Positions 11,950 to 24,100 of a DNA stretch of 64,000 nucleotides are shown here, in pieces. Location: assembly GCA_044229975.1 (NCBI GenBank), contig JBGARZ010000015.1, positions 157,525 through 221,524 of the forward strand, read 5' to 3'. The stretch's first letter is position 1, and each line of letters starts with the position of its first letter. Source of the DNA: Polyangiales bacterium. GTDB lineage: Bacteria; Myxococcota_A; Polyangia; Polyangiales; Ga0077539. The position numbers were made by a program, and so were the translations under genes. The notes under the pieces are model-generated. The model ran no database searches. It saw only the letters and a program-made list of their open reading frames with translations, and had not been told where the DNA came from.

Positions 11950-13059
11950 ATGGACGATTCGGACGACGGGGCGCGGGCGAAGCTGCCGGGGGTTGTTCCG
12001 CTGAAGAACCTCACGCGAGGCCACGTGTCGGTCGCGAAGGTGCTGCGCGGCTGGTACGTCGCGGCGCGCGCCGACGAGCTCACCGACAAGCCCCTCGCGG
12101 TGACCATCTGGGACATCCCGATGGTGCTCTTCCGCGGCGCGAGCGGGAAGCCCACGGCCCTGCTCGACCGCTGCCCCCACCGCAACGTTCCGCTCTCGCT
12201 GGGCCGCGTCGTCGACGCGCAGTTGGAGTGCGGCTATCACGGCTGGCGCTTCGGCGCGGACGGCGGTTGTCGCTTCGTCCCGTCGCGGGTGGGCGACGAT
12301 GCGACGGACGGGCGGGCGCGGAAGGTCCCGTGGTTTCCGACGCGCGAGCTCGACGGCTTCATCTGGGTGTACCCGACCCCCGAGGCGGCGCCCGACGAGG
12401 AGCCGTACCGCTTCGCGTACGTCGGCGCGAAGGGATACGACCACTCGTATTCGATGGTCACCGCGGAGAGCACCCTGCACGCCGCGATGGAGAACGCGCT
12501 CGACGTCCCGCACACGGCCTTCCTGCATAAGGGGCTGTTTCGGAGCGAGAGCCGCGGGGTGACCATCACCGCCGTCGTGCGCCGCGGGAAGGACCGCGTG
12601 GAGGCCGAGTACCTCGGAGAGACGCGACCGCCAGGATTGGTCGCGCGGCTGCTATCACCGTCGGGCGGTGAGGTGTCGCACTTCGATCGCTTCATCCTGC
12701 CGGGCATCGCCGAGGTCGAGTACCGGTTGGGCAATGAGAACCACCTGATGGTGGCCACCGCGATGACGCCGGTGTCGGACTTCGAGACGCGGTTGCATGC
12801 GGTGGTGAGCTTTCGGCTGAGGGTTCCGCACGCGGTGGTGAAGCGGGCGCTCAAGCCGCTGGCGATGCAGATCTTCAAGCAGGACTCGGTGATGCTGAAG
12901 GCGCAGACCGACGTGGTGCGGCGCTTCGGCGGTGAGCAGTTTGCGTCGACGGAGATCGACGTATTGGGTCGTCACATCTGGCGACTTTTGAAGGCGGCCG
13001 AGCGCGGCGAAGTGCTGAAGGACGAGACGACGGAGGAGCGGGTCGAGCTGGTGGTGTAG
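11950..13059 (+). CDS. Rieske [2Fe-2S] aromatic ring oxygenase / VanA-like alpha subunit
   Basis: CPHR...CGYHGW Rieske motif; ENALDVPHTAFLH mononuclear Fe site. Confidence 0.92.
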   Translation: MDDSDDGARAKLPGVVPLKNLTRGHVSVAKVLRGWYVAARADELTDKPLAVTIWDIPMVLFRGASGKPTALLDRCPHRNVPLSLGRVVDAQLECGYHGWRFGADGGCRFVPSRVGDDATDGRARKVPWFPTRELDGFIWVYPTPEAAPDEEPYRFAYVGAKGYDHSYSMVTAESTLHAAMENALDVPHTAFLHKGLFRSESRGVTITAVVRRGKDRVEAEYLGETRPPGLVARLLSPSGGEVSHFDRFILPGIAEVEYRLGNENHLMVATAMTPVSDFETRLHAVVSFRLRVPHAVVKRALKPLAMQIFKQDSVMLKAQTDVVRRFGGEQFASTEIDVLGRHIWRLLKAAERGEVLKDETTEERVELVV

Positions 13060-13074
13060 GTCGGACCACCCGCC

Positions 13075-13557
13075 ATGCGCATCACGGACACACTCGCGCT
13101 CGCCTCGCTCTGCGCCGCGTGCGCGTCGACCGCTGCGCCCGTCGCGGTCGGTCCGTCGTCCGTCGCGCCTGCCCCGCCTGTGCCGCCATCGCGCTCAGCG
13201 GCGCCCGCACCACCGCCTCCGCCGACGCGCGATCACACCCTGGAGGTCGACGAGCTCCCACCCGCCTTCGCGCAGCTCTCTCCGCGCGATCGCGAGCGCT
13301 GGCACGCCTGCCACATCTTCTTCCTCGTCGACCGCCGCACCGGCGCGCCCACCGAGCGCTACGCCCCGACGCCGGGGAGCGTCTACCGCCCGCCCACGGA
13401 GCAGCACCTCGGCTTCAGCGTCACGGCCGCGCAATATGTCGCGGTCGCGGAGCCCGATCGCCGCGGCTTTCTCATCGGACACGGTTGCCCGGAGAGCCTC
13501 GTCGACCTCGCCGACGGGACGCATCTCGACATCGTCGAGTCCGCTCCGCAGCCGTAG
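13075..13557 (+). CDS. Hypothetical lipoprotein
   Basis: Lipobox-like LCAAC, Pro-rich linker, coding-like codon usage. Confidence 0.6.
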   Translation: MRITDTLALASLCAACASTAAPVAVGPSSVAPAPPVPPSRSAAPAPPPPPTRDHTLEVDELPPAFAQLSPRDRERWHACHIFFLVDRRTGAPTERYAPTPGSVYRPPTEQHLGFSVTAAQYVAVAEPDRRGFLIGHGCPESLVDLADGTHLDIVESAPQP

Positions 13558-13565
13558 CGCAGTGC

Positions 13566-13718
13566 CGTCGCGCCCGTCTGCCGCGGGTTGAAAACCCACG
13601 GCAGCCAAGGGAAAGCCCGCGTGGCGGGCTGCCCATGTGCGAGGGCATTGACCAACCCGCTGTGCGGGTTTTCCCTTGGCTGCCGTGGGTTTTCAACCCG
13701 CGGCAGACGGGCGCGACG
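13566..13718. repeat. REP/REPIN-like inverted-repeat doublet, family A copy 1
   Basis: 55-bp arms (13566-13620 and 13664-13718) with one mismatch; each arm holds the short hairpin CCGCGGGTTGAAAACCCACGG; lies between convergent genes. Confidence 0.85.
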
Positions 13719-13744
13719 ACTTCAATGCGAGTGGCCTCAAGCCC

Positions 13745-14857
<1,113 letters not shown>

Positions 14858-14966
14858 GGTGACCCCGGGCGTTAGCAGAGGGTGACGCGGGGAGGGAAGA
14901 TTCTCGCGGCCTGGTAGGGGCGTAGGTGACGACCGATCAGCTCCTGACGCATGATGGCCCCGCCTC

Positions 14967-15644
14967 ATGGTGGACCCCCCTCCTCGTCGACGATCGCTGC
15001 TCGGCTCGCCGAGCACGCCCACCATGCTCGCGCTCAATGGCCTCGGCATCACCGTCGCCGCAGCGCTCGCCCTCCACCGCGGCGGCGTCTCGCTTCCGCG
15101 CGCGGCCCTCTTCGCCCTCCTGGGCGCCAACCTCTGGACGCTCGTCGAGTACGTCGTGCATCGCGCGCTGCTCCACGGCGCCATGGCCCGCTCCCACGCG
15201 CGCCATCATCGCGAGCCGGCCAACGTCCGCTTCCTCCACGGTCCGCTCTCCGCGTGGGCCGTCACCTACGCCGTGTCCCTCGTCGGCCTCACCCTTTCGT
15301 TTGGCCTCGCTCGCGGGCTCTGGGCCTTCGTCGGGCTCAACGCCGCCTACGTGGTCTTCGAGCTCACCCACGCCGCCGTCCACGCCGACTTCAAGGCCCG
15401 TTGGTTTCGCCCCGCGCGGGTCTTCCACGCCTCCCACCACTACGGTCGCGTCACGCGCGCCTATGGCTTCTGCACGCCGTTCTGGGACTGGGTCTTCGGC
15501 ACCCTCGGGCCCGCCCATCGCTTCCCGCGGCTCGCCCTCTGGCTCGTCCCGCTGCCCATCCCGATGGTGCACTTCGTCCTCGCCGCGGCCCTCGCCCCGA
15601 TGCCCGATGCCGACGTCGTCGCCGACCCCGAAACCTCGGCCTGA
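14967..15644 (+). CDS. Sterol desaturase / fatty acid hydroxylase family protein
   Basis: His boxes EYVVHRALLH, HARHH, HAAVH, HASHH; YGFCTPFWDWVFGT; start could be 15024. Confidence 0.85.
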   Translation: MVDPPPRRRSLLGSPSTPTMLALNGLGITVAAALALHRGGVSLPRAALFALLGANLWTLVEYVVHRALLHGAMARSHARHHREPANVRFLHGPLSAWAVTYAVSLVGLTLSFGLARGLWAFVGLNAAYVVFELTHAAVHADFKARWFRPARVFHASHHYGRVTRAYGFCTPFWDWVFGTLGPAHRFPRLALWLVPLPIPMVHFVLAAALAPMPDADVVADPETSA

Positions 15645-15739
15645 CCCGGCCCACGCCTTGCTCAAACGCCTCGCAGTACCCTTCGCCACCGCGGACTTGA
15701 GCCACGTTGGCACAATCCGGTTAGGCTCTCGCGACCGCC

Positions 15740-17038
15740 ATGACAGACCTCGGCCCACGCCCGCGCTCGCTCCCCATCGCCCCGACCGCGGCGCCCGCCC
15801 GGCGCAACCTCCCGCTGGCCAACGAGACCCGCGCCATCGATCAGCGCTGGCGGCCCATCTACGCCGTCTGGGAGATCACGCTGCGGTGTGACCTCTCGTG
15901 CCGCCACTGCGGCTCGCGCGCGGGTCGTACGCGACCCGACGAGCTCACCACCGAGGAGTGTCTCGACCTCGTGAAGCAGATGGCCGAGCTCGGCACCAAG
16001 GAGGTCACCCTCATCGGCGGCGAGGCGTACCTCCGCGACGACTGGACCGACATCGCCCGTGCCGTTCGCGCCCACGGCATGGACTGCACGATGACCACCG
16101 GCGGCCGCGGCCTCACCTACGAGCGCGTCGTCGCCGCGAAGGAAGCGGGCATCCGCAGCGTGAGCGTCAGCGTCGACGGGCTCGAAGAGACCCACGACGC
16201 GCTGCGCGGCGTGAAGGGGAGCTTCCGCTCGGCCTTCGAGGCGATGGGTCACCTGAAGCGGGCGGGCATTCCGTTCTCGGCCAACTCGCAGTTCGGCCGC
16301 AAGAGCATCAAGGAGATGCCGGCGGTGTTCGATCGTCTCGTCGAGGCGGGCATCCACTCGTGGCAGACGCAGATCACCGTCGCCATGGGGCGCGCCGTCG
16401 ACGAGCCCGAGCTGTTGCTGGAGCCCTACCAGATGCTCGAAGTGCTCGCGATGCTGGCGCGGCTCAAGCCCGTCGCCGACGCCAACCGCGTGCGCATCTG
16501 GCCGGGCAACAACATCGGGTACTTCGGCCCCTACGAGACGCTCCTTCGCGGAACGCTCCCGCGCGGCCACATGGCCTCCTGCGGCGCCGGGCGTTCGACG
16601 CTCGGCATCGAGGCCGATGGGTCCATCAAGGGGTGCCCGTCGCTGCCGACGCTGGAGTACACGGGCGGCAACATCCGCGACACGTCACTGAAGGACATCT
16701 GGGAGCGATCGGCCCCGCTGCGCTTCACGCGCGACCGCACCGTCGAAGACCTCTGGGGTCACTGCCGTGACTGCTACTACAACGACACCTGCCGCGCGGG
16801 CTGCTCGTGGACCACGCACGTTCTCCTGGGCAGACCGGGCAACAACCCGTTCTGCCATCACCGCGCGCTGGAGCTGCTGCGCAAGGGCCGTCGTGAGCGG
16901 GTGGTTCGCGTGCAGGCCGCGCCGGGTGAGCCCTTCGATCACGGGCTCTTCGACATCGTCGAAGAGGACTGGCCCGCCGACGAACTCGAGAGAGCCCAAC
17001 GACTCGCGGAGACCGGCGAAGGCTGGCTCACGGACTGA
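15740..17038 (+). CDS. Radical SAM/SPASM peptide maturase (splicease-like), paralog 1
   Basis: VWEITLRCDLSCRHCGSRAG (CxxxCxxC), IGGEAYLR, SPASM CGAG...KGCPSL and CRDCYYNDTCRAGC...NPFC. Confidence 0.93.
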   Translation: MTDLGPRPRSLPIAPTAAPARRNLPLANETRAIDQRWRPIYAVWEITLRCDLSCRHCGSRAGRTRPDELTTEECLDLVKQMAELGTKEVTLIGGEAYLRDDWTDIARAVRAHGMDCTMTTGGRGLTYERVVAAKEAGIRSVSVSVDGLEETHDALRGVKGSFRSAFEAMGHLKRAGIPFSANSQFGRKSIKEMPAVFDRLVEAGIHSWQTQITVAMGRAVDEPELLLEPYQMLEVLAMLARLKPVADANRVRIWPGNNIGYFGPYETLLRGTLPRGHMASCGAGRSTLGIEADGSIKGCPSLPTLEYTGGNIRDTSLKDIWERSAPLRFTRDRTVEDLWGHCRDCYYNDTCRAGCSWTTHVLLGRPGNNPFCHHRALELLRKGRRERVVRVQAAPGEPFDHGLFDIVEEDWPADELERAQRLAETGEGWLTD

Positions 17039-17056
17039 AAGAGGAGACCCACGTCG

Positions 17057-17617
17057 ATGTATCAACCGCTCGCCCCCTGTCCCGGATGCGCCCGCCACGT
17101 GAGGGTCGCCGACCGGAGCTGTCCCTTCTGCGGGACCTCCTTCGCGTCGGCCCTGATCCCGCAGCCCGGCGTCGACGCGCGCCGTCGGCTCTCGCGCGCG
17201 GCGCTCGTGACCTTCGCCGCCACGCTGGGCGCGGCGGGCTGCGGTGCCACCGTGACCAACACCGACGCGGGCGGCACCCTCGACGTCGGTGCGGCGGTCG
17301 ATCGACCCGTCGCGGTCGACAACGGCGCGCGCGACGCGGGCACACCCGACACTGGCTTCGTGACCCGCGACTCGGGCGCGCCGGACGACCACGGCGGCCC
17401 CGTGGCGGCGTACGGCGGGCCCTTTCCGACCGACGCAGGACCGCCCGACGACGAGGGCAACAGCAGCGCGGACTACGGCTCGCCGCCGCCGCGCGACGCG
17501 GGCAACGGACCCGACGACGACGGCGGCAGCGCGGCGGAGTACGGCGCGCCGCCCGGTGACAGCGGCTTCTTCCCGCTGTACGGCTCGCCCCCGCGACCCG
17601 ACGACGCAGGACTTTGA
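17057..17617 (+). CDS. Putative multi-core RiPP precursor lipoprotein 1 (Zn ribbon + lipobox + 4 YG motifs)
   Basis: RBS GAGGAG; CPGC-x10-CPFC; RRRLSRAALVTFAATLGAAGC signal; AAYGGP, ADYGSPP, AEYGAPP, PLYGSPP. Confidence 0.8.
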   Translation: MYQPLAPCPGCARHVRVADRSCPFCGTSFASALIPQPGVDARRRLSRAALVTFAATLGAAGCGATVTNTDAGGTLDVGAAVDRPVAVDNGARDAGTPDTGFVTRDSGAPDDHGGPVAAYGGPFPTDAGPPDDEGNSSADYGSPPPRDAGNGPDDDGGSAAEYGAPPGDSGFFPLYGSPPRPDDAGL

Positions 17618-17677
17618 CAGGGCGGGTGCGCCCGTACTTTCTTCCCACACCCACTAACGCTTGAAAGGAGACTCTTC

Positions 17678-18211
17678 ATGGCAGCTTCACTGGTTCCTTG
17701 TCCCTCGTGCGCGCGGCACGTTCGTTCGACGGAGGGCGCTTGTCCCTTCTGTCGCACGGCGCTGTCGTCCAACCTCGCCGCCCGCGCGGTGCCCGGCACC
17801 ACCCAGCGCCTGAGCCGCGCCGCCGCGTTCACCTTCGCGGCCTCCCTCGCCGCCACCGGTTGCGCGAGCGACCCGGTTCCGAGCGACGCCGCGACCACCA
17901 CCGACGTCGGAACCGACTCCGGCACCGTCACCGACCGCGGCAACCCCACCGACACGCAGACCCCGGCCGACGTGCAGACCCCGGCCGATGTGCAGACGGT
18001 CACCGACAGCGGCCCGCAGGACAGCGGCGGCGGGATGGCCCTCTACGGCGGCCCTCCGGTGGACAGCGGAACGCAGACCGACGGCGGCACCGATCCCGAG
18101 GACGGCGGCGGCGTGGCTCCGCTCTACGGCCTGCCCCCGCCCGACGCGGGTCAGGACGGCAGCATCGGTGTTCGCTACGGTTCTCCGCCCCGGCCCGACG
18201 CCGGGGTCTGA
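17678..18211 (+). CDS. Putative multi-core RiPP precursor lipoprotein 2 (Zn ribbon + lipobox + 3 YG motifs)
   Basis: RBS AAGGAG; CPSC-x10-CPFC; QRLSRAAAFTFAASLAATGC signal; ALYGGPP, PLYGLPP, VRYGSPP. Confidence 0.8.
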   Translation: MAASLVPCPSCARHVRSTEGACPFCRTALSSNLAARAVPGTTQRLSRAAAFTFAASLAATGCASDPVPSDAATTTDVGTDSGTVTDRGNPTDTQTPADVQTPADVQTVTDSGPQDSGGGMALYGGPPVDSGTQTDGGTDPEDGGGVAPLYGLPPPDAGQDGSIGVRYGSPPRPDAGV

Positions 18212-18213
18212 TC

Positions 18214-19527
18214 GTGCCCGAGCTCCCGCCCCGCCCCCGTTCTCTCCCCATCGCCCCGAAGGCCGAACCCGCGCGCCGCCGCCTGCCCCTCGCGGGCGAG
18301 GTGCGCGAGGTCGACCGCGTGTTTCGCCCCATCATCGCGGTGTGGGAGCTGACGTTGCAGTGCGACCTCGCGTGTCGTCACTGCGGGTCGCGGGCGGGGC
18401 GCAGCCGACCCGATGAGCTCACCACCGACGAGGCGCTCGACCTCGTTCATCAGCTCGCGGCGATCGGCTGCAAGGAGGTGACGGTCATCGGCGGCGAGGC
18501 GTACCTGCGCGAGGACTGGGTGCGCATCGGGCAGGAGGTTCGCGCGTGCGGCATGGAGCTCACCATGACCACCGGCGGCCGCGGAATGACCCCCGAGCGG
18601 GCGCGCGAGGCGAAGCTGGCGGGCGTCGAGAGTGCGTCGGTGTCCGTCGACGCGCTGGAGCCGATGCACGACTCGCTGCGCGGAGTGCAAGGAAGCTGGC
18701 GCGCGGCGATGGCGGCCATCGGCAACCTGAAGGCGGCGGGCATCCCGGTGTCGTGCAACACGCAGATCGCGCGGCCTGCGCTGCGTGACATCGAGCCGTT
18801 GCTGGAGCACCTCGTCGCGGCGGGGATGCACTCCTGGCAGGTGTCGATGACCGTTCCGATGGGCAGAGCGGCCGACGAGCCCGGATTGATCCTGGAGCCG
18901 TACCAGGTGCTGGAGGTGATGCCGCTCATCGCCCGCGCGGCGCGTCGGTTGAAGCGCGACAAGATCCGGCTGTGGCCGGGCAATGACATCGGGTACTTCG
19001 GCCCGTACGAGACCGAGCTGCGGGGTCGGATGCCGCGCGGGCACATGGCGGCGTGCGGGGCGGGGCGGCTGTCGCTGGGCATCGAGGCCGACGGGTCGAT
19101 CAAGGGGTGCCCGTCGCTGCCGACGAAGGACTATGTGGGCGGCAACGTCCGCGACGAGAAGCTGTTGGACATCTGGGAGCGCGCCGGGGCGCTGCGCTTC
19201 ACCCGCGACCGCACGCGCGATGACCTCTGGGGCTACTGCGCGGACTGCTACTACGGCGACGATTGCCTGGGCGGGTGTTCGTGGACGGCGCACGTGGTGT
19301 TCGGTCGAACGGGGAACAACCCCTTCTGTCACCACCGGGCGCTGGAGCTGTTGCGGGAAGGAAAGCGCGAGCGGCTGGTGCTGGAGACCCCGGCGGAGGG
19401 CAAGCCGTTCGACCATGGGATCTTCTCGCTGGTGACCGAGGCGTGGCCGGAGGACGAGCTCGCCCGCGCGCAGGAGGTGGCCGCGACGGGCGAGGGGTGG
19501 CTGCTCTCGACGGAGCGGGCGGGTTAG
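18214..19527 (+). CDS. Radical SAM/SPASM peptide maturase (splicease-like), paralog 2
   Basis: GTG start 2 nt after the precursor-2 stop; N-terminus PRPRSLPIAP shared with paralog 1; CDLACRHC; SPASM CGAG...KGCPSL, CADCYYGDDCLGGC...NPFC. Confidence 0.93.
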   Translation: MPELPPRPRSLPIAPKAEPARRRLPLAGEVREVDRVFRPIIAVWELTLQCDLACRHCGSRAGRSRPDELTTDEALDLVHQLAAIGCKEVTVIGGEAYLREDWVRIGQEVRACGMELTMTTGGRGMTPERAREAKLAGVESASVSVDALEPMHDSLRGVQGSWRAAMAAIGNLKAAGIPVSCNTQIARPALRDIEPLLEHLVAAGMHSWQVSMTVPMGRAADEPGLILEPYQVLEVMPLIARAARRLKRDKIRLWPGNDIGYFGPYETELRGRMPRGHMAACGAGRLSLGIEADGSIKGCPSLPTKDYVGGNVRDEKLLDIWERAGALRFTRDRTRDDLWGYCADCYYGDDCLGGCSWTAHVVFGRTGNNPFCHHRALELLREGKRERLVLETPAEGKPFDHGIFSLVTEAWPEDELARAQEVAATGEGWLLSTERAG

Positions 19528-20873
19528 CGGCAGGATTGGCGGGGGCCGCAGCCGGACTCGGTGCCGGGCGCGGTCTGGGCGCAGCCGGCGAGGTCTTCGA
19601 AGGAGTTGTTGCTCGACATGAAGTCGGGCGACGCGGCGCCGCGCCAGCCGCGGAAGATGCCGTGGCCGAGGCCGTGCGCGATGCGGGTGTTCTGCACGAA
19701 GGCCGTTGCGGGAGGCTGCGAGAAGATGATGGTCGAGTCGTGGCTCGCGACGTCGCTGCACGTCAGCAGCACGCACCCGCAGTCGCCGCCCGCGTACTCG
19801 ATGTTCGCGTGTTCGAGGCGGTTGTCGGCCGAGGGAATGCCGCCGTACCAGAGGCCCGACCAGTCGCCCGCGTGCTGCGTCGGCGCGGCGCTCGTCATGG
19901 TGATGGGGCGGGCCGCGGTGCCCACCGCGCGGAGCACACCCGAGGCCGCGAAGTCGCCGGTGTAGTGCTCGATCTCGAAGCGCGTTCCGGGGTGGAAGCG
20001 CATCGTCACGCCGGGCTCGATGGTGAGCGTGGTGCGCCGCGTGGCCTCACGACCGCCCATGCCGATGACGAAGCGGTCGACCGCCGAGTTGCCGATGCGA
20101 TACGGGACGCCCCGGTCGCGCAGGGTGGCGTCCGCCTGGAGTCCGCCGCGACCGTCACCGCCCTCGGGGTCGACGAGGATCTCGTTGGTGCGGTTGCCCG
20201 TGTACGTGCCGACCGGAACCGCGTCGATGGCGTGCTCGCCGATCACCATCGGAAAGGGGATCGCCTCGCTCCCGGTGCGGGTGATCACGAGGTCGGTGGA
20301 GCCGGGGGCGAAGGTTCCGGCGCGCTCGACGACGAGGCCGGGGCCGAAGGAGTCCTCGATGGTGACGTGGTCGAGGAGCGCGACCGGCTTGGCGGGCAGC
20401 ATCAGGTCGCCGCGCAGCACGAGCGAGGCGTTGTTGTGGAAGCGGTCGCCGCCGCCGTCGGCGAAGTTCACATAGCGCAGCACCGCGCGGCCGGTGCCCT
20501 CGACGGTGACCTGACCCCAGCGGGCGCCCGCGAGGCCCTCGAAGGTGATGGGGCGCTCGGCGGTTCCTTCGGCGACGAGGCGGGTGTTGGGGCGCATCAC
20601 CGTGAGCGAGGCGTCGGCGCGAAACACCACCTGCGCGCAAGGCTCGATGGTGAGCGTGGTGCCCGCCGCGAGGCGCGTGTCGCCCTGCACCACGTGGGGG
20701 CTGGTGGCCGCGGTCCAGGTCTCGCTCTGCTCGATGCTGAGCGGGTGCGTGGTGGGCGTGGTGTTGGTGATGACGGGACACCCCTGGGCCGACGGCGTCC
20801 CTTCGGGCGTGGGGCCGCAGGCGGCGGCGAGCGAGGCGAGGGCGACGGTCGAGAAGATGGCGGCGGTGCGCAT
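19524..20873 (-). CDS. Lipoprotein with repeated TLTIEPG...GTA.RPIT..W beta-helix-like modules
   Basis: Lipobox LAAAC; two internal repeats of TLTIEP...GTA(E/A)RPIT...W. Confidence 0.7.
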   Translation of the reverse strand: MRTAAIFSTVALASLAAACGPTPEGTPSAQGCPVITNTTPTTHPLSIEQSETWTAATSPHVVQGDTRLAAGTTLTIEPCAQVVFRADASLTVMRPNTRLVAEGTAERPITFEGLAGARWGQVTVEGTGRAVLRYVNFADGGGDRFHNNASLVLRGDLMLPAKPVALLDHVTIEDSFGPGLVVERAGTFAPGSTDLVITRTGSEAIPFPMVIGEHAIDAVPVGTYTGNRTNEILVDPEGGDGRGGLQADATLRDRGVPYRIGNSAVDRFVIGMGGREATRRTTLTIEPGVTMRFHPGTRFEIEHYTGDFAASGVLRAVGTAARPITMTSAAPTQHAGDWSGLWYGGIPSADNRLEHANIEYAGGDCGCVLLTCSDVASHDSTIIFSQPPATAFVQNTRIAHGLGHGIFRGWRGAASPDFMSSNNSFEDLAGCAQTAPGTESGCGPRQSCR

Positions 20874-21137
20874 GGTGGAGGCTCTTTCTGGCGCCCCGCG
20901 ACGATGGTCGGCGGTGCGCTCCGTTGTGGTGTGCATCGACCCTTGAGCACCCCGCGTGCCGTGCGGAATCTGCTGATAAATATGGGGATTTCGATGCTTC
21001 GCGCTTGAGCGGCGGCGACGTGCACGACGGGCCGACGAAGCGCGGATTGAGCAGACGTGGCGCAACCTCTCCCGCTCGGCGTGCGTTCGCCGTTGGAAGC
21101 GTCGGAGAGCTGTGGTCGGATCGCCGTCCCCCCCCTA

Positions 21138-24100
21138 ATGGTGCTTCCACCCGGCGCCCGCGTCGCAGGACGCTTCGAGATCGAGGACCTCGCCGGCGTC
21201 GGTGGCATGGGCAAGGTGTATCGGGCGCGCGACCTGCACACCGGCGAGCGCGTGGCGCTCAAGCTGCTGCGACACGACACACAACATCGCGAGAGGTTCT
21301 TGCGCGAGGCGCGGCTGCTGGCCGCGATGCAGCACCCGAGCATCGTCCGGTACGTCGACAGCGGCGAGGTCGAGGACGGCGCGCCGTTTCTCGCCATGGA
21401 GTGGCTGGAGGGCGAGACCCTCGACGCCCGCTTCGAGCGGGGAGGGCTCAGCCTCGCCGAGAGCATCGCGCTCATTCGAAGCATCGCCGAGGCCCTCGGC
21501 GCCGCCCACGCGCGCGGCGTCGTTCACCGCGACGTGAAGCCCGGCAACGTCTTCCTGGTGGGGCAGCGGGCCGACCGCGCGCGGCTGCTGGACTTTGGCA
21601 TCGCCCGCGAGCTCGACGGGCTCGCTTCGCTCACCGGCACCGGCGCCGTGCTCGGGTCGCTCGGGTACATGTCCCCCGAGCAGATCCGCGGCGAGCGCGT
21701 CCACGACACCCGCTCCGACGTGTTCTCTCTCGGTCTGCTGCTCTACCGCTGCGTCGCGGGTCAGCCTGCGTACTCCGCCGACCATCCGCTGGCCCTGCTC
21801 GCGAAGGTGGTCTTCCACGAGCCGACGCCGCTCCTCACGCGCCGCCCCGACGTGTCGCCCGCCCTCGATGACCTCGTGCGACGGATGCTCTCGCGCCGCA
21901 AGGAAGAGCGGCCCGCCGACGGCAACGAGGTCGCCCGCGCGCTCGGCGAGCTCGACGTGGGCGCGGTCGAGGCGCCGTCGGTACGACCGTCCGTGCTCAC
22001 CGCCCGCGAGCGACGACTGGTGGCCGTGGTGCTCGTGCGCCTCGCGGCCGGAGCGCGCGACCGCGACGCCACGTTGCCGCTGTTCGGCGGCGTCGCCCGC
22101 CCGGCGCTCATCGGGGGGTTGCGCCTCGACAGCGCGGAGTACGCCTGGCTGGCCGACGAGACGCTCGTCGTGGTGCTCACCGCCGCGGGCGCCGCGACGG
22201 ACCTCGCCACGCGGGCCGCACGGGCCGCCCGCTCGCTGCGCGCCGAGCACCCGGGCGCCGCGCTCGTGGTCGCCATGGGCGGCGCCGAGGTGGGCGACGC
22301 GCTCCCGTCGGGCGAAGTCCTCGAACGCGCCGCCGCCATGCTCGCCGCCTCTCCGCTGCTGGCGCCGCCGGGCGAGGCCATCGCGCTCGATCCGCTCACG
22401 GCCGACCTCCTGCGCGCCCGCTACGACGTGCGCGCGACGCCGCGCGGCGCCGTGCTCGCGGGCGAGGCGCCGCCCGAGTCCGTGGCCGGGGCGGTGCTGC
22501 CCTTCGTCGGGCGCGACCGCGAGCTCGCGCAGCTCGTGGCGCTGTACGAAGCGAGCGCGGCCGAGCCCATCGCGCAGGTCGTGCTGGTGACGGCGCCCGC
22601 GGGCGTGGGCAAGACGCGCCTCGCCGCCGAGATGCTCGCGCGGCTGCGATCGGTCGATCAGCCGCCGGAGGTGTGGTCGGCGTACGGTGATCCGTTGAGC
22701 GGCGCGTCGCCGCTGGCGCTGGTGGCGGCGTGCGTGCGGCGGGTCGCGGGCATCCTCGACGGCGAGGCGCTCGCCACGCGGCAGGAGAAGCTGCGCGCCG
22801 CGGTGGAGCAGCGGGTTCCGGCGCATGCGCGCGAGCGGGTGACGGACTTCCTCGGCGAGCTGGTGCGCGCGCCCTTCTCCGACGAGGGGCGGCCGACGCT
22901 CCAGCAGGCGAGGCAGCACGGCCCGCTGCTCTCCGATGAGATTCGCCGCGCCTTCGAAGAGCTCGTCGAGGGGACGTGCGCGCGCGGTCCGCTGGTCATC
23001 GTGGCGGAGGACGTGCACTGGGCCGACGCCCCCTCGCTCGCGTACCTCGACGGGGTGCTGCGTCGCCTCGCGCACGCCCCCTTCTTCCTCGTGGCGCTGG
23101 CGCGGCCGGAGGTGCACGACCTCGCCCCGCAGCTCTGGGCCGAGCGTCACGTGCTGGAGCTGCGGCTCCGCGGGCTGCGCGCCAACGCCTCCGCGGTGCT
23201 GGTGCGCTCCGCCCTCGGAACCGACGCGCGCGACAGCGTGGTGGGGCGCCTGGTGGAGCAGGCCGAGGGCAACGCGTTCTATCTGGAGGAGATGGCGCGG
23301 GCGGTGGCCGAGGGCCTGACGGCGGCTCCGCCCGACACGGTGATCGCGACGGTGCAGGTGCGGCTGGGCGCGCTGCCGTCGCCCGCGCGGGCGGTGCTGC
23401 GGGCGGCGAGCGTGTTCGGCGAGGTGTTCTGGCAGGGGAGCGTCGAGGCGCTGCTCGGAGGTGAGGCGGGCGACGTCCCGACGTGGCTCGCGCACCTCGT
23501 CGCGCGCGAGGTGCTGGTGGCGCGCGACGCGGCGCGCTTCCCGGGAGAGCGGGAGTACGCCTTCCGTCACGCGCTGCTGCGCGAGGGCGCCGACGCGCTG
23601 CTCACCGACGACGACCGCGCGATGGGTCACCGGCTCGCGGCGGCGTGGCTGGAGTCCGCGGGCGAGTCCGACGCGGCGGTGCTCGCGGGTCACTACGCGC
23701 TCGGACGCGAGCCCGCGACGGCGGCGCGGTGGTGGCTCGCGGCGGCGGAACAGGCGTTTGAGCGCGACGACCTCGACGCGGCCCTCGACCTGGCCCACCG
23801 CGCGGCCTCGCTCGACCCGGCGTCGCTGCGACGGGTGGAGTCGGCGGTCGCGGCCCGCCGCGCGGAGCTCGCGTCCGGGGCGGCGCCCATGCCCACGGTG
23901 GTGCCCGCGTCGGGCTACCGCTTCGCCATCGTCCCCGACACGCAGATCTTCGTGGAGGTGTGCGCGGGCTGCTGGAGCCGGGAGTTCACCGAGCGCTACG
24001 TGGCGGACTTCAAGGCCGCGCTCGCGCCGCTGCTGGGTCGGCCGTGGGCGAAGCTGTGCGACCTCGACGCGTGGCTGCCGACGGCGCCCGACGCCGCGGA

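Follow-up and report, generated by a model that had tools for sequence, protein, structure and literature searches.

A 64,000-nucleotide stretch of DNA from a Polyangiales bacterium (the window; it lies on contig C14 of a 10.0-Mb, 93% complete assembly that we label G000) contains, between positions 15740 and 19527, a tight same-strand array in which two radical S-adenosylmethionine (rSAM) enzymes with SPASM domains, X1 and X2, flank two small proteins with repeated Tyr-Gly motifs, P1 and P2. An earlier note on this DNA had taken the array for a candidate splicease system making peptides that are made on ribosomes and then modified (RiPPs), and its description of the genes agrees with ours. 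The intergenic gaps measure 18, 60, and 2 nucleotides; X1 and X2 are paralogs, 66% identical over 430 residues; both carry the CxxxCxxC motif (C50/54/57) and a full set of seven SPASM cysteines (C281, 299, 342, 345, 351, 355, and 372); and every tyrosine after the signal region sits in Y-G-x-P (Y119, 140, 162, and 175 of P1; Y123, 150, and 167 of P2). The features are as follows, X being the residue that precedes Tyr-Gly.

15740..17038, + strand: X1, rSAM/SPASM enzyme of the splicease lineage, 432 residues, with Q211 and N258 as is usual in the family
16511..16513, + strand: codon of X1 Asn258 in the motif G-N-N-I-G-Y, its neighbors being residues modeled in the substrate pocket (from sequence and model)
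17057..17617, + strand: P1, predicted lipoprotein substrate, 186 residues, with zinc ribbon, signal, Cys62, and acidic low-complexity tail
17078..17131, + strand: zinc ribbon of P1 (C8-x2-C11, R13-H14, C22-P-F-C25), predicted enzyme-docking tag
17180..17242, + strand: basic stretch, hydrophobic stretch, and lipobox-like end of P1 at Cys62 (codon 17240-17242; from sequence and family counts)
17411..17590, + strand: four Y-G-x-P sites of P1, Tyr codons at 17411, 17474, 17540, and 17579, with X = A, D, E, and L
17678..18211, + strand: P2, predicted lipoprotein substrate, 177 residues, with a P1-like leader, Cys62 codon at 17861-17863, and three YGxP sites (X = L, L, and R)
17699..17752, + strand: zinc ribbon of P2 (C8 to C25)
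18173..18187, + strand: terminal site of P2, Arg166-Tyr167-Gly-Ser-Pro, predicted target of X2
18214..19527, + strand: X2, paralogous rSAM/SPASM enzyme, 437 residues, initiated by GTG, from a distinct conserved clade; carries Q211S and N258D
18844-18846, + strand: codon of X2 Ser211 (from sequence)
18985..18987, + strand: codon of X2 Asp258 (G-N-D-I-G-Y), proposed to specify basic X residues (from sequence and clade comparison)

P1 and P2 belong to a family scattered over the genome. A profile of the leader alone retrieved 15 genes on 9 contigs (E ≤ 3e-15; next match 1e-4), and YGxP lies downstream of the leader in all 15, 13 of which are away from X1 and X2 in unrelated neighborhoods. By tblastn, X1 and X2 are the sole close splicease homologs found in the assembly, the next match being 27% identical. 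Other genomes repeat the pattern: G215 has 26 leader matches, with YG in 24/24 complete tagged open reading frames (ORFs); G223 has 15 on 15 contigs (12/13); G225 has 9, of which 8 were recovered by profile (7/7), and its sole enzyme match is distant, at 42% identity; and G212 has 6 (5/5). Across 201 genomes of the phylum, 71 have an enzyme match and 35 a leader match, and 34 of those 35 are also enzyme-positive, the exception being a marginal match with an internal stop; the leader profile is insensitive at distance, as several profile-negative, enzyme-positive genomes show ribbon genes beside the enzyme. Of 31 relatives, 24 have both enzyme and leader and 7 have neither. A flagged ribbon ORF accompanies the enzyme at 93 of 108 enzyme loci, and 138 of the 147 complete flagged ORFs contain YG; the 9 that lack it comprise 6 apparent false positives of the pattern (Arg-rich frames), 2 apparently frameshifted genes, and 1 with Y-A-G.

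The tyrosines of these proteins are concentrated in the motif. In the 15-gene family, 26 of 34 tyrosines after residue 50 fall in YGxP, compared with 165 of 30,665 in 3,391 long ORFs (binomial P ~2e-52, or 7e-40 with the family's own composition), and 333 of 364 tyrosines after residue 35 of the 147 flagged ORFs are in YG. The family consensus, [PIVA]-[AVGM]-[AP]-[LAM]-Y-G, resembles the PlpA3/PcpA cores given in part of the supplement to PMC11414181. The earlier note had also proposed a longer repeat, D-x-G...Y-G-x-P-P...D-[AS]-G, which four of the seven sites match exactly and the other three do not. We rejected it as a recognition unit because of this partial fit and because D-x-G is a frequent motif elsewhere: of 407 other lipoprotein-like ORFs in the genome, 191 contain it at least twice in their first 110 residues, whereas only 7 have YGxP. 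Nor is the note's figure of up to seven accepted sites established: in a characterized splicease system, a D-Y-G site stayed unmodified, according to a passage of PMC11626197, and among the sites of P1 one is D-YG and another E-YG. A few members (G000:C32:725900-726184, C36:34482-34754, and relatives) have C-Y-G, with YG directly after the lipobox cysteine, where splicing would change the very residue that receives the lipid, or would prevent processing.

The leader also looks like an export signal. P1 and P2 share the order C-x2-C-x-R-H-x7-C-P-F-C, basic stretch, hydrophobic stretch, Cys62, and acidic low-complexity tail. Pattern counts under textbook lipobox rules covered 149 different family proteins (complete, starting with Met, and containing YG) from loci L015-L122 and our own genome. 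They place a lipobox cysteine in 145, with Gly, Ala, or Ser at -1 in 140 of these and Ala (47), Leu (38), or Val (15) at -3; a basic residue lies upstream in 145, and in 139 the 10 positions before the cysteine are free of charged residues. Three of the four members without the cysteine come from our own genome (3/15), and their A-x-A stretches resemble sites of signal peptidase I. The genome has genes for Lgt and LspA. Twin-arginine export was rejected, as its motif occurs in 3/149. At L114 (4250-7228), the ribbon-lipobox leader is joined to a protein of at least 992 residues with three CxxCH motifs and a single nonconsensus YG, beside a splicease homolog; the close relative L097 has an ordinary 132-residue YG precursor instead. 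The leader of this cytochrome-like protein fits a working export signal. From these sequence patterns, we predict that most of the tagged proteins are lipoprotein-type substrates of signal peptidase II.

One alternative is a classical spliceotide RiPP pathway, in which YG would be spliced, the lipoprotein would be a mere carrier, and host proteases would release small diffusible ketoamide peptides. The tails, which are low-complexity and repeat-like, suit such a pathway, and the characterized spliceotide cores are short protease-inhibitory peptides in the portions of PMC11626197 and PMC9811515 that describe them. Yet the lipobox cysteine is kept almost throughout the family, some tagged proteins have only one YG site, followed by what appears to be a folded domain, and no conserved peptidase or ABC exporter was found beside 79 enzyme loci, where the largest real clusters of neighbors span 7 loci. 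We therefore consider release of free peptides rather unlikely and favor export of the full-length, mostly lipid-anchored protein.

The enzymes themselves point to splicease chemistry. When X1 and X2 were scored as the earlier note had proposed, TIGR04103 (the PlpX family, which we take to be the same as IPR026482) gave 512 and 474 bits against a cut-off of 725, and TIGR03913 gave 494 and 425 bits against 592, its match stopping near profile position 390 of 477. These two models lead about threefold: the next-best family (TIGR04133/TIGR04134 type) reaches 173 and 169 bits, about one-third of the splicease-lineage scores, and both enzymes exceed the TIGR04085 (SPASM) cut-off. InterPro links IPR026482 to PlpX, as stated in a passage of PMC11002830. 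With no score outside the splicease lineage above 173 bits, a heme/Ahb/NirJ/PQQ function was rejected, and YG-rich neighbors are consistently present beside the homologs. A Nostoc enzyme, which passes TIGR04103 at 853 bits, serves here as a stand-in for the characterized spliceases PlpX, PcpX, and RhaX; its identity over ~380 residues is 54% to X1 and 48% to X2. Identity to the DUF1843-associated (TIGR03913-type) enzymes is 46-53%. A 125-sequence FastTree phylogeny places X1 and X2 in a clade with the Nostoc enzyme (support 0.974), and the outgroups are long-branched. By sequence, X1 and X2 are a separate branch of the splicease lineage, inside neither TIGR04103 nor TIGR03913. AlphaFold2 confidently models X1 as an rSAM/SPASM fold (predicted local distance difference test [pLDDT] 91.8); a search of the PDB by sequence and by fold found no splicease, and matches in the ESM Atlas were confined to Myxococcota clusters, with a recognition value barely above threshold. 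The earlier note's splicease RiPP reading thus holds for the lineage, as model scores and YG neighbors indicate, but a local RiPP cluster is too narrow for exported-looking lipoproteins, 13 dispersed tagged substrates, and the lack of a conserved peptidase or transporter.

X1 and X2 very probably work like a splicease. Both enzymes, or X2 alone, could instead cross-link tyrosine, cleave the backbone, or stop at an intermediate in place of excising tyramine. Scores under the equivalog cut-offs leave room for this, as do the changes of X2 at two near-invariant pocket positions (Q211S and N258D) and the closest solved folds, SkfB, PqqE, and SuiB, which are cross-linking enzymes of 16-24% identity. 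Against it stand the much higher identity to the TIGR04103 member, the match of the X-Y-G motif and its upstream context to known splice sites, and the fact that the changes in X2 covary with the X residue while Tyr-Gly stays constant. A different chemistry is, in our estimate, clearly unlikely, and tyramine splicing is the reading that we carry forward.

Comparison with the closest known systems shows which parts are shared. The type I spliceotides (PlpX/PlpY/PlpA and PcpXYA) have an rSAM/SPASM enzyme of the family whose above-cut-off member is 48-54% identical to ours, and several X-Y-G sites per precursor in a similar upstream context. They differ in that our array has no Y or RiPP recognition element (RRE) gene and no Nif11/NHLP leader, and has instead a zinc ribbon with export signal as leader, dispersed substrates, and two specialized paralogs. 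The gaps in the array leave no room for an RRE gene, and PqqD matches of the genome occur only on contigs C31/C32; P1 and P2 gave no Nif11/NHLP match against Pfam/NCBIfam and no NCBIfam model at E 0.01. The binary spliceotides of Rheinheimera (RhaXA, RcsXA, and RasXA; type II) likewise lack a separate Y protein, and their leader element can function from the substrate as well as when joined to the enzyme, as engineered fusions described in part of PMC11414181 showed; there the element is a PlpY-like helix, whereas here it is a Cys4 zinc ribbon modeled on a GYFGPYE loop. The 'GDL motif peptide-associated' rSAM/SPASM enzymes of TIGR03913, found with DUF1843 proteins, share 46-53% identity, YG in the partners, and a zinc ribbon within the system. 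In contrast to our locus, that ribbon is on the enzyme C terminus rather than on each substrate, and the DUF1843 partners are small helical proteins without a visible signal. P1 and P2 have no PF08898 (DUF1843) match, and a DUF1843 search of our genome found none, although the same search matched no control genome either. The TIGR04133/TIGR04134 system of Bacteroidota presumably also pairs an rSAM/SPASM enzyme with a putative lipoprotein, but X1 and X2 score far under its cut-off of 425 bits.

The exchange of the ribbon between enzyme and substrate suggests that it is a docking module. A C-terminal ribbon is present in 119 of the 120 best homologs of the L078 enzyme (TIGR03913-type; the sole miss is a truncated sequence) and in none of the 120 best homologs of X1 (myxobacterial-type). 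A profile built from the 149 substrate ribbons recognizes those of the enzymes from L078 (Pyrinomonadaceae), Azospirillum, and Aureibacter at 38.4, 26.8, and 19.1 bits, and the N terminus of a Tropicibacter enzyme at 32.4 bits; the best of 560 nonfamily double-CxxC ORFs of our own genome reaches 13.3 bits. The partner of the L078 enzyme is an 80-residue protein without a ribbon but with a YG site. Complex prediction for X1, P1(1-62), and zinc scored 0.86 (best of three controls, 0.00). Of 157 solved complexes, 116 attain that mark, as do 2 of 215 mismatched pairs; these counts are only rough here. At least 50% of contacts are common to the runs, and the partner pLDDT is 66-68. The surest contacts join leader residues 11-14, 5, 7, and 23 to X1 262-268, 275-277, 346-350, and 374, and the interface list also holds leader 56-60 and X1 43, 211, 256-257, and 301, which we read as the end of the leader lying in the enzyme pocket. 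The model thus supports binding of the ribbon to X1. For the L078 enzyme, AlphaFold2 folds the ribbon and helix at the C terminus with confidence (pLDDT 92-96) after a disordered linker; this model gives no contacts and so does not show docking in cis. The predicted docking would parallel the PlpY or RhaA-leader helix, which activates the enzyme whether fused to substrate or to enzyme (passages of PMC11414181). On a plasmid of Tropicibacter oceani (L126:2195-3817), a splicease homolog nested among Myxococcota enzymes in the tree has a ribbon leader of myxococcotal type fused to its N terminus; trypsin-like and M23 peptidase genes follow it, and no YG precursor was seen there. It is possibly a natural leader-enzyme fusion formed after gene transfer.

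A ribbon that is a generic zinc-binding or membrane-topology element, with the enzyme reading the YGxP context alone, is a decidedly improbable alternative. PlpX modifies leaderless tags, as part of PMC11414181 reports, and ribbonless proteins with the motif do occur: the L273 precursor described below and, in our own genome, a paralog resembling L7/L12 (PF00542; G000:C32:714786-715187, equivalent to L347:2287-2688, - strand) that lacks both ribbon and signal, is present in 6 of 31 relatives, and keeps a hinge Y-G-x-P-P invariant in 6/6 aligned homologs. The latter is possibly a cytoplasmic substrate that needs no tag. In the two sets examined, however, the ribbon is on either the enzyme or the substrate, the predicted interface uses its conserved R13/H14, and the modeled contact residues R275, H277, Y346, Y347, and D349 are mostly conserved in each of the two ribbon-using groups but changed in the one ribbonless Nostoc enzyme. 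These points argue for the ribbon as a recruitment tag.

The presence of two enzymes may be explained by the residue in front of Tyr-Gly. The X1-precursors-X2 layout recurs at 16 of the 108 loci; L110 and L121 were rejected as further cases, each being one frameshifted gene. X2 belongs to a clade of its own, supported at 0.998 (24 tips, 125-sequence FastTree), 0.976 (55 tips, a further tree), and 100/98 (24-sequence IQ-TREE). Seven positions consistently distinguish the X1 clade from the X2 clade, and two of them are otherwise near-invariant, with Gln211 (Ser in X2) in 70/71 and Asn258 (Asp in X2) in 71/71 other enzymes; Q211 is on the modeled interface list, and N258 adjoins N257. In a 401-genome sample of the order, the G-N-D pattern occurs in 29 of 30 genomes of the bacterium's own family, in 13 of 191 of a second family, and in no other family. 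The precursors show a matching division. In the 19 twin-type loci, 28 of 140 sites are R-YG; the 71 other loci have 200 sites, none of them R-YG. Of 79 metagenome loci, 61 have readable precursor sites, and among these R-YG occurs at 13/13 loci with an Asp enzyme (several of them near-identical copies) versus 1/48 others, the single case having an X1-like enzyme and twin-type precursors.

Separate enzymes sharpen this association. Fourteen Asp matches were fetched from the second family. Thirteen belong to the X2 clade, each as the only enzyme of its fetched stretch; 10 of these have adjacent precursors, 2 are cut by contig ends, and 1 has no precursor. The 11 precursors beside them have one site each, and 11/11 are R-YG. 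Outside the X2 clade, Asp258 has three further origins, L256, L273, and L333. At L256, a partial enzyme with Asp258 accompanies a precursor with L-YG and R-YG. At L273 (3036-4868), the Asp258 enzyme is sister to the Nostoc TIGR04103 member, and adjacent upstream lies a basic 181-residue protein, without ribbon or Pfam match, that has six V-V-A-[RK]-Y-G-x-P-P repeats (4 R-YG and 2 K-YG); this is a different type of system. Approximately unbiased tests with the trait column masked, for groups named after the first trees had been seen, rejected grouping with X2 for both L256 (p 5e-4) and L273 (p 1e-5). R-YG sites thus track Asp258 in three of four separate origins. Whole genomes agree: G215, which has X2, has Arg at 15/49 sites, and genomes in which no Asp enzyme was seen have R-YG at 0/25 (G223, with 15 tagged genes and two Asn-type enzymes) and 0/19 (G225) sites. 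G212 seemed a counterexample (Asp enzyme, 0/12 Arg sites), which was rejected on finding two R-YG in a contig-edge ORF directly upstream of the enzyme. Our own genome has R-YG at 4/27 sites, the terminal site of P2 and three dispersed ones. Read most simply, these sequences suggest a pairing of Asp258 with the side chain of a basic X, and X2 would serve those four sites.

That the pair is merely redundant, supplying dosage for a large substrate load, and that shared ancestry accounts for the link between Arg sites and Asp258, is very improbable: the twin loci do all come from one family, genomes with at least two enzymes are often substrate-rich, and L333 has Asp258 without a basic site, but X2 is a well-supported clade in nearly every genome of its family, lone X2-clade enzymes stand beside R-YG-only precursors, two independent origins of Asp also come with basic sites, and G223 is rich in tagged genes without any R-YG.

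On balance, we give a probability of about 0.58 to the reading that X1 and X2 are two likely tyramine spliceases acting on genome-wide, predicted-exported, mostly lipid-anchored substrates recruited by the ribbon, with X1 likely serving nonbasic X-YG and X2 likely R-YG. Several points weigh against it. Both enzymes score below the curated cut-offs of TIGR04103 and TIGR03913, TIGR03913 enzymes are taken here as putative spliceases, the identity comparison depends on the Nostoc stand-in, and in the 24-sequence IQ-TREE the myxobacterial clades and the Nostoc enzyme are joined by deep branches that lack resolution. The calibration of the complex score was made without small molecules and on other alignments, and the model covers X1 and P1 only. 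It is uncommon for a signal peptide to be preceded by a folded extension of 40 residues, and the -3 residue is Ala in P1, P2, and 47/145 family members, where the textbook lipobox has Leu, Val, or Ile. The fourth Asp258 origin, L333, adjoins a P-YG precursor; the Asp enzymes of L345 and L346 have no adjacent precursor; and K-YG occurs beside Asn enzymes at 4/131 sites of the metagenome loci. Finally, many counted loci are close kin and not independent, and a 93% complete assembly could be missing a third enzyme, several genomes of the same genus having three.

On the favored reading, the sequence of events would begin in the cytoplasm, where the ribbon is predicted to bind the G-Y-F-G-P-Y-E loop of the enzyme and the adjacent SPASM surface. 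By homology, SAM-radical chemistry would then excise C8H9NO (135.07 Da) at each accepted site, leaving an α-keto-β-amino amide. Export, acylation at Cys62, and cleavage by signal peptidase II would discard the ribbon, the 3/15 tagged proteins without the cysteine probably taking a signal peptidase I-like route instead. The disordered tail might thus show one to five ketoamides in the envelope, where they would act as reversible inhibitors of Ser/Cys proteases, and X2, by producing an Arg ketoamide, would extend the specificity to trypsin-type proteases. The ketoamide warhead of cyclotheonamide A is arginine-derived. We propose this function because spliceotide ketoamides inhibit Ser/Cys proteases and unspliced controls do not, according to passages of PMC11626197, and because cyclotheonamide A forms a hemiketal with trypsin, as noted in part of PMC8154582. 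Protease inhibition displayed on the envelope is the least supported step, and another use of the reactive keto group, such as surface cross-linking, is possible.

More tentatively, at somewhat less than even odds, the system may amount to a genome-wide splicing service, in which a portable ribbon tag, a module that TIGR03913 enzymes bear themselves, routes up to ~26 exported proteins per genome to ketoamide arming and envelope display, an Asn-to-Asp258 switch that evolved at least three times sets Arg/Lys warheads, and the twin locus covers hydrophobic-P1 as well as trypsin-type proteases. If true, backbone splicing would count among the general protein modifications of a major phylum of soils and fresh waters, and X2 would be a ready enzyme for genetically encoded arginine ketoamides. 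The zinc ribbon and lipobox, the swap of the ribbon between enzyme and substrate, and a reason for two enzymes all go beyond the earlier note. The splicease survey of Scott et al. 2022 reportedly covers 939 predicted systems in 189 genera, with 27 confirmed pairs and types I-V, and it may already list myxobacterial pairs or this clade. In the literature that we covered, which did not include that survey, we found nothing on myxobacterial, ribbon-tagged, lipoprotein, or dispersed splicease substrates, on RYG splicing, or on an Asn/Asp switch. Final spliceotide products of native hosts remained elusive as of 2022, in the words of one passage of PMC9811515, and part of PMC11414181 names substrate recognition by two-component spliceases as an open need. 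The locus offers a predicted lipid-anchored full-length product, a putative docking tag of ~25 residues that can be on enzyme or substrate, and a single pocket residue that would predict acceptance of R-YG.

Around the array, an Rfam scan of 12000-24000 gave no noncoding RNA match and a promoter scan no promoter-like site; the terminator scan found two overlapping hairpins after P1 versus 1.3 expected from shuffling, which is not significant, and a GC hairpin with a T-rich tail between P1 and P2 (17620-17645) is within the same expectation. A soil metatranscriptome sharing 7% of words with the locus was not used as evidence of expression because its contigs are relatives (80-95% identity) and contigs cannot show transcription. 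Apparent frameshift splits occur in contigs of metagenome-assembled genomes (L051:5036-6804, L110, L121, L054:4927-5736, and L106:3198-4385) and are maybe assembly errors. The closest public relatives, up to 95% identical, are metagenome-assembled genomes labeled Myxococcales, Polyangiales, Myxococcaceae, or Deltaproteobacteria. The flanking genes, a fatty-acid-hydroxylase-family gene upstream (PF04116; 14967-15644, + strand) and a convergent lipoprotein-like ORF without Pfam match downstream (19524-20945, - strand), are kept in close relatives only.

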